Shown here: piece after piece, positions 26,176 to 52,844 of the stretch
Numbering within the stretch: position 1 is the stretch's first letter
How the letters are laid out: each line of letters opens with the position of its first letter
Origin: Escherichia phage vB_EcoM_PTE-Eco09
Sequence record: PQ306574.1
DNA length: 64,000 nt
Reading direction: 5' to 3' (one strand)
Translations under genes and position numbers: made by a program
The notes under the pieces: generated by a model
Seen by the model: only the letters and a program-made list of their open reading frames with translations
Databases searched by the model: none
What the model was told of the DNA's origin: nothing

Positions 26176-26206
26176 CCCCGAAATTTTTTCGGGGTTTTTT
26201 GTTTTT
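26176..26206 (+). terminator. Rho-independent terminator
   Basis: CCCCGAAATTTTTTCGGGG hairpin followed by TTTTTTGTTTTT. Confidence 0.7.
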
Positions 26207-26211
26207 AGGTG

Positions 26212-26240
26212 TTGACAACCATAAACGACTATAGCATAAT
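26212..26240 (+). promoter_or_regulatory. Early promoter module (TTGACA-N17-CATAAT), conserved-leader type
   Basis: GGTGTTGACA, 17-bp spacer, TAGCATAAT, then conserved leader ATCGAAACGAAACAC..AGGAGAATCAAAATG. Confidence 0.65.
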
Positions 26241-26277
26241 GCACATATCGAAACGAAACACACTTAGGAGAATCAAA

Positions 26278-38828: not shown

Positions 38829-39131
38829 ATGTCATTTATTCGTAAAACTCTAACAGCGGCAATATGCTTGACTGCGGTCGGAAGTGTCAGTGCTGATCAA
38901 TATGATCCAACTGGTGACTTTACTGATTATTTCGACGGTGCAATGATAGTATATGTAAACAAAATATCTCCTTCCATTGAAACCAGCCAGAAATTTCATG
39001 CCCATATTATGAAGATGTATGCTCGTAGTAAATGTATGGATTCTAAGCAGTGTTTTATTATGGGGGAATATGCCGCACAACAGTTTGTTATGTTGCATAA
39101 TATGGAGAATCGAGAACATGAAATTCAGTGA
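38829..39131 (+). CDS. Secreted protein of unknown function (100 aa)
   Basis: Signal peptide MSFIRKTLTAAICLTAVGSVSA; GGGGGAA RBS. Confidence 0.5.
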   Translation: MSFIRKTLTAAICLTAVGSVSADQYDPTGDFTDYFDGAMIVYVNKISPSIETSQKFHAHIMKMYARSKCMDSKQCFIMGEYAAQQFVMLHNMENREHEIQ

Positions 39132-39516
39132 TTTTCGAAAGACGTCCGAAGATGGGAAAGCTAATAAAGTTGACCGCTTTATCGGTGAATGTCTGATGAG
39201 TGTTACTTATATGCATTCTGCGCATTTTGGAGTAACTGGTCCTGGATCTTATGCAAAACATAAGGCTCTAGAAGAGTTCTATCTTGAAATGCAAGAATTG
39301 GTTGATGATTTCACTGAAACCAATATTGGGATCACTGGTCGTTATCAGCCAACGTTGGTCGTCCGCAAGGAGATGAGCGAAATTGCCTATTTGCAAGAGT
39401 TAACGCAAATGGCTAGTGAGATTTATAATGATGTTGATAGCTCGTTACAGAGCGTTTTAGACGATATCAAAGCTCTATGCTTTAAAACAATTTATAAACT
39501 CACTCGATTGGCTTAA
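39118..39516 (+). CDS. Hypothetical protein (132 aa)
   Basis: First ATG with a weak RBS in a long track ORF; start uncertain. Confidence 0.45.
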   Translation: MKFSDFRKTSEDGKANKVDRFIGECLMSVTYMHSAHFGVTGPGSYAKHKALEEFYLEMQELVDDFTETNIGITGRYQPTLVVRKEMSEIAYLQELTQMASEIYNDVDSSLQSVLDDIKALCFKTIYKLTRLA

Positions 39517-39750
39517 TGTTAGTCACATTGGGATACATACCAGAAGTAAAAGAATACTAGCATCAACACAACTATTTGTCTTCCTCATACTTTCGCGTGT
39601 TCAATTACTGCCGAATCGGAAGACCCGTCTAAGACGAGGAAGGGTTATCATTGGAAAGGGATGGTGAATTGGTTACTATGTTTAACTAGTTTAGCAAAGG
39701 TCGATTCAAACACTACTATACAAATGGACGTGAATAAAATATAATCAAAA

Positions 39751-39780
39751 AGCCATCCGAAAGGGTGGCTTTTTCGTTTT
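39751..39780 (+). terminator. Rho-independent terminator
   Basis: AGCCATCCGAAAGGGTGGCT hairpin followed by TTTTTCGTTTT. Confidence 0.65.
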
Positions 39781-39786
39781 TAGGTG

Positions 39787-39815
39787 TTGACAACCGGAAT
39801 AGGGTATAGCATAAT
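39787..39815 (+). promoter_or_regulatory. Early promoter module (TTGACA-N17-CATAAT)
   Basis: GGTGTTGACA..TAGCATAAT. Confidence 0.65.
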
Positions 39816-39844
39816 GCACACATTGACAACAAAGGAGAATCAAA

Positions 39845-40054
39845 ATGATTAATCCAGTAGCCGCAGCACTTGCTTCCGAAGAAACTTTGAAGTATATGGT
39901 AGAACATGCAGCAAAGAAAGGAGAAATTGTTACTGCCGATGAGATCGTAGAAACCATGCTCCGCGATCCGAAGGGTAACACTGCAAAGTTTTTCGGTGAT
40001 CATCTTAAGCTGGCTTACAAAACAATTATGGAGACCGTGAAGAATGCAAAATGA
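39845..40054 (+). CDS. Hypothetical protein (69 aa)
   Basis: AAGGAGAATCAAAATG leader. Confidence 0.55.
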   Translation: MINPVAAALASEETLKYMVEHAAKKGEIVTADEIVETMLRDPKGNTAKFFGDHLKLAYKTIMETVKNAK

Positions 40055-41373: not shown

Positions 41374-42150
41374 ATGGCAATATCTTCTGGATGGGTAGGA
41401 TCATCTGCGGTGTCCGAGACTGGTCAACGGTGGATGAGCGCCGCAATGCAAGCTGTACGCTTAGGTCGTCCGGCGTATATGTCGGCAATGGTCGGACGCT
41501 CTAAAGAGATTCATTATAGCATTGGTGCTAGTAACTCTTACAATAAAGACACTCTTATTAACTGGATGAAAGCACAAGGATCTACTCCTGTAGTAATTAC
41601 TATCACGGGTGATATTGTTTCCCAATCTACTGGAGTTCCTTGTCTTGACTTCCCTAGCTCGTTAACAAACGAATATGTAACATTGATCATTAACTCCGGT
41701 GTGACTGTCTACGGACGTGGGGGTAATGGTGGTAGTAACGCTGCTGGCGCTGCTGGTGGAAACGCAATCAATAACGCTATCGGTACACGTCTACGAATTA
41801 CAAATAACGGTGCTATCGCTGGTGGCGGCGGTGGCGGCGGTGGCGGTAACAGGGGTAAACTATCATTTGGTGGTGGCGGTGGTCGCCCATTCGGTGCTGC
41901 CGGGTCTTCCTCTAATATGGGTTCTGGTGCAACCGCTGGCTCCATTTCCGCTCCGGGTAAAGGATCTGTTGGTTCGGGGTCTCTTAGTGCATATACAGGC
42001 GGTGCGGGCGGTAACGTTGGTGCTGCTGGAGGAAGATGTAATACTCATGGGAACTGTACAGAATATAACGGTGGTGCTGCTGGTAAAGCCGTTACTGGTA
42101 ATGCTCCACGCTGGGATAAAGTAGGCACGATCTACGGCGATCGCGTGTAA
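41374..42150 (+). CDS. Glycine-rich receptor-binding adhesin-like protein (T2/T6-type gp38-like), orphan
   Basis: N-terminal GWVGSSAVSETGQRWMSAAMQAVRLG..ITITGDIV resembles the gp37-binding domain of T2-type gp38 as recalled; C-terminal poly-Gly motifs (GGGGGGGGGN, FGGGGGRPFGAAG) alternating with variable segments. Confidence 0.55.
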   Translation: MAISSGWVGSSAVSETGQRWMSAAMQAVRLGRPAYMSAMVGRSKEIHYSIGASNSYNKDTLINWMKAQGSTPVVITITGDIVSQSTGVPCLDFPSSLTNEYVTLIINSGVTVYGRGGNGGSNAAGAAGGNAINNAIGTRLRITNNGAIAGGGGGGGGGNRGKLSFGGGGGRPFGAAGSSSNMGSGATAGSISAPGKGSVGSGSLSAYTGGAGGNVGAAGGRCNTHGNCTEYNGGAAGKAVTGNAPRWDKVGTIYGDRV

Positions 42151-42157
42151 TTTTATG

Positions 42158-42190
42158 GGCTATCCTTCGGGATAGCCTTTTTTTGTTTTT
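42158..42190 (+). terminator. Rho-independent terminator
   Basis: GGCTATCCTTCGGGATAGCC hairpin followed by TTTTTTTGTTTTT. Confidence 0.7.
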
Positions 42191-42195
42191 GGGTG

Positions 42196-42223
42196 TTGAC
42201 AAAGATAATCACAATGCTATAAT
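42196..42223 (+). promoter_or_regulatory. Early promoter module (TTGACA-N16-TATAAT)
   Basis: GGGTGTTGACA..GCTATAAT. Confidence 0.65.
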
Positions 42224-52778: not shown

Positions 52779-52810
52779 AGCCGATCCGAAAGGGTCGGCT
52801 TTTTCGTTTT
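52779..52810 (+). terminator. Rho-independent terminator
   Basis: AGCCGATCCGAAAGGGTCGGCT hairpin followed by TTTTTCGTTTT. Confidence 0.7.
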
Positions 52811-52816
52811 GGGGTG

Positions 52817-52844
52817 TTGACAACATGATTAGCTAATGTATAAT
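52817..52844 (+). promoter_or_regulatory. Early promoter module (TTGACA-N16-TATAAT)
   Basis: GGGGTGTTGACA..TGTATAAT. Confidence 0.65.

Follow-up and report, generated by a model that had tools for sequence, protein, structure and literature searches.

Between the stop codon of rI.-1 (39514-39516) and the next start codon, an ATG at 39845, lies a gap of 270 bp (39517-39786) that most curated Krischvirus records leave unannotated. What is this segment? A preliminary description had left three options: a small RNA, a replication or recombination site, or the remnant of a lost gene. A stretch of 501 bases around the gap matches 58 phage records, all of them Krischvirus (RB49-like T4-type coliphages), including RB49, JSE, GEC-3S, Phi1 and ECD7, mostly at 96-99.8% identity. 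The window, i.e. the whole stretch of 64,000 nucleotides analysed, is Krischvirus DNA.

Locally, the gene order is vs, a phosphatase gene, three small ORFs, tk, rI, rI.-1 and the gap; then come four small ORFs, a further small ORF and a gp38-like adhesin gene. The rI.-1 product is recognised by Pfam DUF5856 (E 3e-21) and PHROG 858 (E 1e-43). In the matched records, the gap is bounded by rI.-1 on one side and by a small ORF on the other, ahead of which a terminator and an early promoter are annotated. As the preliminary description stated, the gap holds no credible ORF: only a 27-aa ORF (39661-39744, plus strand) and antisense ORFs overlapping the next gene were found. Further downstream, the window carries a 258-aa ORF with long poly-glycine runs (41374-42150). 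Its GEC-3S counterpart is annotated as “tail fiber protein; host specificity”, i.e. a gp38-like adhesin, with annotated terminators on either side and a promoter directly after the downstream one.

We consider it highly probable (roughly 0.93) that the gap is the pseudogene scar of a gene of about 2.15 kb, encoding a 715-aa Ig-domain Hoc-like protein, followed by the gene's own terminator. The gap is a case of ordinary gene decay, and not a new RNA or DNA element. The features of the locus are as follows.

39118-39516, plus strand: rI.-1, the intact upstream neighbour, a DUF5856 gene annotated as “starvation-inducible transcriptional regulator”.
39517-39536, plus strand: former spacer and ribosome-binding region of the lost gene, ATTGGGATAC here and AAGGGGGA(A)TAC in intact genomes.
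39537-39539, plus strand: dead start codon, ATA here and ATG in intact genes.
39540-39680, plus strand: 5' coding remnant, gene nt 4 to about 147, from alignment, tblastn and translation.
39667-39680, plus strand: deletion junction 1, AATTGGTTACTATG, from overlapping blast segments and the parent sequences.
39681-39698 (39667-39706 with both junction repeats), plus strand: internal remnant, gene nt 1857-1895, codons ~619-632.
39699-39706, plus strand: deletion junction 2, GGTCGATT, a perfect 8-nt direct repeat (Brandy gene nt 1888-1895 and 2110-2117).
39707-39737, plus strand: 3' coding remnant, which with junction 2 gives the last 12 codons, GRFKHYYTNGRE, and the TAA stop at 39735-39737.
39747-39781, plus strand: intrinsic terminator of the lost gene, AAAAAGCCATCC-GAAA-GGGTGGCTTTTT and then CGTTTTT.
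39787-39815, plus strand: early sigma-70-type promoter, just outside the gap, TTGACA, 17 nt, CATAAT (11/12 consensus positions).

The fragments were defined by pairwise blastn against Brandy, G2248 and SSG23, and by tblastn of the intact protein against the whole window. In the blastn comparison, window positions 39490-39680 correspond to gene nt −47 to 147 (76-84% identity to the intact alleles), 39667-39706 to gene nt 1857-1895 (95% identity over 40 nt to Brandy and SSG23), and 39699-39798 to the stretch from gene nt 2110 past the stop codon and across the terminator (99-100% identity to Brandy and G2248). Over the whole window, tblastn returned exactly three pieces. The first, aa 6-41, lies at 39550-39657 (E 1e-11, 72% identity); the second, aa 619-632, lies at 39666-39707 and contains an internal stop; the third, aa 704-715, lies at 39699-39734, is identical at 12/12 residues and is followed by TAA. 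What survives is about 145 nt of the 5' end, an internal island of about 40 nt and the last 39 nt, and about 1.9 kb of the 2.15-kb gene are missing. The alignment with related genomes, which the preliminary description had proposed as a check, resolves the gap into three collinear pieces of a gene for a 715-aa protein, which other Krischviruses possess in intact form at this position. The last of its three options is thus the one that stood.

The surviving coding parts carry several lesions. The ATA at the start position is common to all 14 scar-bearing genomes aligned, Phi1 included. An extra A at 39553/39554 causes a +1 frameshift and leads to a TAG at 39558-39560 (codon 8); in the shifted frame the 5' remnant reads TSINTTICLPHTFACSITAESEDPSKTRKGYHWK, versus TSINTTIWLPHTFACSIAAESDDPTKPKKGYVWK in G2248. 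The codon for Trp15, a residue invariant in 15 intact homologues, is TGT in the window. The internal remnant reads ELVTMFN*FSKGRF, with GAG changed to TAG at 39687-39689, and this site is still GAG in ECD7, JEP8, MIZ4 and G2494. The most variable part of the scar is the former spacer, with a nucleotide diversity (pi) of 0.08. At 39729-39731, in the 3' remnant, JEP8 reads ...NGLE* versus ...NGRE*, and NGLE is the ending of other intact alleles (three of the homologue set). To judge from these sequences, this suggests that allele exchange by recombination may have occurred even within the dead remnant, or in its ancestor.

An intact 2.1-kb gene was found right after rI.-1 in six records: Brandy, G2248, SSG23, SFHK24, UPWr_E1 and JK32. 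It has 712-716 codons, starts 21-22 nt past the rI.-1 stop and ends just before the same terminator and promoter; in the relatives that match the gap only partly, the match lies beneath a large “hypothetical protein”. Across the 58 records, the gene is intact in 6, carries the Phi1-type deletion in 2 (one phage) and is reduced to the window-type scar in 50. Among 50,697 phage records, it was found only in Krischvirus. Public data contain 15 clusters of intact homologues (706-718 aa, 58-97% identity), which indicates that the gene is maintained elsewhere.

In a divergent relative, a 59%-identical homologue occupies the same regB...vs...tk-rI-rI.-1 context, which argues that presence of the gene is the ancestral state. 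In that genome the gene is followed by a C5 DNA methylase gene (PF00145) and, a few genes on, by a homologue of Dmd (antitoxin), instead of the small ORFs of the window; the region downstream is thus hyperplastic. A search of IMG/VR for rI.-1 loci yielded only ECD7 and 55-58% relatives from other genera. About 40 nt ahead of the dead start codon, and still inside the 3' end of rI.-1, the sequence TATAAAC (39493-39499) matches 7/8 positions of the T4 late-promoter motif TATAAATA and is identical in the intact-gene genomes. On this motif match, it might be a late promoter of the lost gene.

The two deletions that separate the fragments end on short repeats. Junction 1 fits imperfect direct repeats of about 14 nt in Brandy, AAGTTGATTACCATG at gene nt ~134-147 and AATTGTTACTATG at 1857-1869, and about 1.7 kb are absent. 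The homology at this junction is only imperfect in the surviving alleles. At junction 2, 222 nt are absent. Phi1 carries a single, different deletion, between copies of the 10-nt GGAAGACCCG (gene nt 84-93 and 1941-1950). All three junctions (two in the window, one in Phi1) thus have a direct repeat of 8-14 nt at both parental positions, with one copy kept. Deletion between short direct repeats is a classic outcome of slippage or illegitimate recombination in T4, as in the classic rII deletions. The present case resembles those deletions in that the junctions lie on repeats at both parental sites and the deleted gene is non-essential and located in a hyperplastic region. It differs from them in that the mechanism here is inferred from the sequences, and in that junction 1 is imperfect in the available alleles.

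Compared with the window scar, the Phi1 scar has retained a shorter 5' part and a 3' part that is longer by about 200 nt. The part of the segment 3' of 39627, about half of it, is absent from Phi1, and other sequence stands in its place. Further deletion cannot turn either scar into the other; the deletions were thus independent events. The two scars share the ATA start and the +1 frameshift, which suggests that point mutations inactivated the gene before it was eroded along separate paths; alternatively, the shared lesions could be explained by recombination among scar-bearing phages. A search of metagenome and viral contigs with a 19-nt dead-start pattern, which is too short for collections of that size (83 loci, all chance matches except the known ECD7), returned no full-length dead intermediate and no further scar type.

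The comparison also bears on the annotation of Phi1. The predicted product of its ORF084.1 (NC_009821.1, 47400-47528), MKGKDLYLQYSCNGYWAIVHQRTMTIETGYGRFKHYYTNGRE, corresponds in frame to the last 42 residues encoded by the lost gene. Arbiol et al. 2010 count ORFan 84.1 among the phi1-unique genes (PMC2839356). By its sequence, it is instead a pseudogene fragment of the 715-aa Hoc-like gene.

The scar ends at a terminator, which the preliminary description had placed at 39751-39780. The terminator is real and slightly wider: the terminator scan gave a 12-bp stem (39747-39758 / 39763-39774), a GAAA loop and a tail rich in T that extends to about 39781. It is identical in the intact-gene genomes and is annotated as a terminator in GEC-3S, G2494 and Makalu; presumably it now ends the tk-rI-rI.-1 transcript. 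The promoter module noted downstream proved equally real, and it is predicted to drive the ORF at 39845-40054. Terminator and promoter together match a published type of cassette, the PeSL (promoter-early plus stem-loop), i.e. an intergenic, stable stem-loop terminator with a sigma-70 consensus early promoter, located ahead of a small ORF and repeated in hyperplastic regions (PMC2839356). In reporter assays, terminator and promoter activity was found for other PeSLs, namely 211/210, 206/205 and 193/192 (PMC2839356).

Segment 39747-39815 has this architecture, with its 12-bp stem and T tail, its 11/12 promoter and its position ahead of a small ORF whose function is unknown. Like the PeSL cassettes of RB49 and Phi1 (PMC2839356), the hairpin (39747-39774) and the TTGACA-17-CATAAT promoter recur in the window, with partial copies at 26195-26245, 42179-42202 and 52784-52824; the copy at 26212-26241 shares the exact TTGACAAC...TATAGCATAATG promoter. 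The usual PeSL stem has the form GGGG...CCCC (PMC2839356), whereas here it is GCCATCC/GGGTGGC.

The small ORF downstream varies in length among phages. RB49p084, the RB49 homologue of ORF 39845-40054, is annotated as shorter (165 nt vs 210 nt), the alignment shows a 1-nt insertion in RB49 near window position 39998, and the PHB13 version has 216 nt. These differences are either sequencing errors or a real frameshift polymorphism.

Exchange between PeSLs is the ORF-shuffling route proposed for this genus (PMC2839356), and we considered PeSL-PeSL excision as the route of loss. It was rejected: the breakpoints lie inside the coding sequence and no PeSL lies upstream of the gene. Unlike in PeSL shuffling, the gene was here lost without PeSL-PeSL recombination.

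The locus could also be read in the opposite direction, with the gap as the original state and the 2.1-kb gene inserted in phages of the Brandy, G2248 and SSG23 type, e.g. as a mobile ORF cassette. The region is indeed hyperplastic, with PeSL-flanked ORFs that are shuffled (PMC2839356), and the intact-gene phages are in the minority (6/58 records). However, a site that had never held the gene would show neither a 40-nt island of internal gene sequence nor 36 recognisable N-terminal codons with a frameshift and stops, and the direction of change is thus loss, not gain. In addition, the C-terminal part of the gene that survives in Phi1 is a different and larger one. The intact genomes have no PeSL between rI.-1 and the gene, only a spacer of 21-22 nt, and the ends of the intact gene are not a duplicated target sequence. 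The divergent relative has its 59% homologue at the same position. We therefore give insertion a negligible probability.

If the segment is the remnant of a gene, is it still under constraint? The window was aligned with 12 relatives carrying the same scar. Nucleotide diversity in the scar (39517-39746) was 0.033, against 0.024 and 0.045 at the third codon positions of rI.-1 and of the downstream ORF, respectively, and 0.005-0.011 at their first and second codon positions. In the terminator hairpin it was 0.009, about 3.5 times below the scar. Moreover, 1-nt indels occur within the scar in the same alignment. With a diversity close to the synonymous-site rate, and with indels, the scar evolves at roughly the neutral pace, constraint being limited to the hairpin. 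The segment thus combines relaxed constraint, disabling lesions and homology to a gene at the orthologous position, which are the marks of a pseudogene remnant.

These values also bear on the possibility of a small regulatory RNA. Such an RNA could have a promoter of its own or arise by processing of the rI.-1 mRNA 3' end; the inverted repeats would serve as its stems and the hairpin at 39747-39774 as its terminator. A strong Rho-independent terminator is present at the 3' end, and the segment is 96-99% identical across about 50 genomes. This identity merely reflects the close kinship of the genomes, and the variation that does occur follows the synonymous-site rate of the neighbouring genes, 1-nt indels being tolerated. 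Regarding structure, the fold of 39517-39746 had −45.5 kcal/mol versus −44.3 for shuffles (z −0.29), no better than expected. With the terminator added, z was −1.71, which is accounted for by the hairpin.

The Rfam/Infernal scan proposed in the preliminary description gave no family at the gathering score in the whole window. A permissive Rfam search (E up to 10, 39300-40000) returned only sub-threshold hits aligned to the terminator hairpin, the best being Phe_leader (25.6 bits versus a threshold of 55 bits) and RNAI (23.3 bits). ARAGORN found no tRNA or tmRNA in the whole window, in agreement with the earlier view that the segment is not a tRNA.

The preliminary description had singled out “extended inverted repeats”. 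Its motifs are present, namely GTCTTCCTC at 39578-39586, GGAAGAC at 39618-39624, GAGGAAG at 39636-39642 and the palindrome CGTCTAAGACG at 39626-39636. The 5' coding remnant holds GTCTTCCTC, GGAAGAC, GTCTAAGAC and GAGGAAG. Their pairing is at chance level, and the arms are not conserved among relatives. Without the terminator, 2 perfect 7-nt inverted repeats were counted versus a mean of 1.85 in dinucleotide shuffles, and the longest perfect one has 7 nt (shuffle mean, 7.2). The G-T-C start of the GTCTTCC arm needs T39581, a base that is G in 12/13 other aligned genomes, so that among these the arm is present only here and in Makalu_001; the GAGGAAG arm is missing from the intact alleles. This leaves the replication or recombination site unsupported, and it also tells against the small RNA. 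In addition, Phi1 has other sequence in half of the segment, and the sole promoter-like site within it (39717-39745) would give just the hairpin. Taken together, we see a slim chance for the small RNA. The searchable literature contained nothing relevant on Krischvirus transcriptomics.

A coding role for what is left is also hardly credible. In this case, a micro-protein would be made from the 27-aa ORF at 39661-39744 (MVNWLLCLTSLAKVDSNTTIQMDVNKI), which does exist and runs across the deletion junctions, or from one of the short ORFs annotated over the scar. Automatic annotation of GoldenSnicker placed a 44-aa plus-strand and a 35-aa minus-strand ORF here, and FL37 has the same 35-aa minus-strand ORF. 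However, the 27-aa ORF lacks proper Shine-Dalgarno spacing, is missing from Phi1 and, in JEP8, ends early at a stop codon. An ATG at 39533-39535 is required for the 44-aa ORF; an A-to-G change at 39535 creates it in GoldenSnicker, whereas the window has ATA. The minus-strand ORF runs over the terminator and the promoter, and nothing is annotated here in most curated records. We rejected the micro-ORF reading, given that the ORFs are not kept in JEP8 or Phi1; the short CDSs of FL37 and GoldenSnicker are very probably spurious.

Then, we asked what the decayed gene encoded. The intact protein gave a weak Pfam Ig_3 hit, a match to PHROG 1149 “Hoc-like head decoration” (E 3e-9, aa 512-698) and, at E 0.023, a weak match to residues 283-361 of T4 Hoc (5vf3_Z), in its C-terminal part. 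Its AlphaFold model (mean pLDDT 73.8) is a chain of beta-sandwich domains over aa 1-605, with a poorly modelled C-terminal helix-and-strand domain (pLDDT <50). In Foldseek, the model matched multi-Ig proteins (contactins, sidekicks) with E down to 6e-18. The protein thus has about six tandem Ig-like domains, a feature of the Hoc family recovered here by AlphaFold and Foldseek, and a C-terminal domain matching the Hoc-like PHROG. Like Hoc, it has tandem Ig-like domains and then a C-terminal domain with the C..WV.DE motif of T4 and Phi1 Hoc. Unlike Hoc, the homologues are about twice as long (715 aa vs 376-404 aa) and lie at the rI.-1 locus, not between gene 24 and inh; the canonical Phi1 hoc is found elsewhere, between 24.3 and inh. 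Apart from the shared ..WV.DE.. motif, BLASTP against Phi1 Hoc was not significant (E 0.18). On the predicted model and profile matches, the lost gene would have encoded a Hoc-like multi-Ig protein, the assignment being weak at the C-terminal domain, the putative counterpart of the capsid-binding domain 4 of Hoc. The product was probably a dispensable decoration protein of the virion surface.

Taken together, the data fit the following course of decay. The ancestor of this RB49-like Krischvirus would have carried the gene of about 2.15 kb directly downstream of rI.-1. It would have been inactivated first, by the change of its start ATG to ATA and by the +1 frameshift; that these two lesions probably came first is suggested by Phi1, which has both. 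Two internal deletions of about 1.7 kb and 222 nt, each between short direct repeats, would have followed, through replication slippage or illegitimate recombination, while the gene's own terminator and the adjacent early promoter (the PeSL cassette) would have been kept. The remnant is now probably an inert 3' untranslated tail of about 230 nt on the rI.-1 message, ending at the retained terminator. Most likely, 39517-39746 has no current role, and in the segment only the PeSL cassette looks functional.

A pseudogene remnant formed by short-repeat deletions beside a known PeSL is a well-known kind of thing, although the present example has apparently gone unnoticed. Its value lies mainly in annotation, and it opens no new biological question. 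It accounts for a 270-bp stretch left blank in about 50 Krischvirus genomes on deposit, marks as very probably spurious the short CDSs that some pipelines have called on it, and corrects the entry for Phi1 ORFan 84.1, published as phi1-unique. The locus also offers a clean natural case in which a gene in a T4-type hyperplastic region was eroded stepwise at short direct repeats, without PeSL-PeSL exchange.

Moreover, the scar draws attention to a Hoc-like multi-Ig protein of 715 aa, so far uncharacterised, that a minority of Krischviruses encode. This protein of 706-718 aa, distinct from canonical hoc, may be a candidate second capsid decoration protein. The gene is dead in 52/58 sequenced records. 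It is conceivable, but in our view rather unlikely, that this Hoc-like multi-Ig accessory gene was lost within one genus at least twice independently, as the different breakpoints of the window-type and Phi1-type scars would suggest, and through selection, not neutral decay. If true, selection would act, in the niches of these isolates, against a second Ig-domain protein on the surface, e.g. for its cost in genome packaging or adsorption, and the few intact-gene phages would use the protein for a specific environment, e.g. in mucus adherence.
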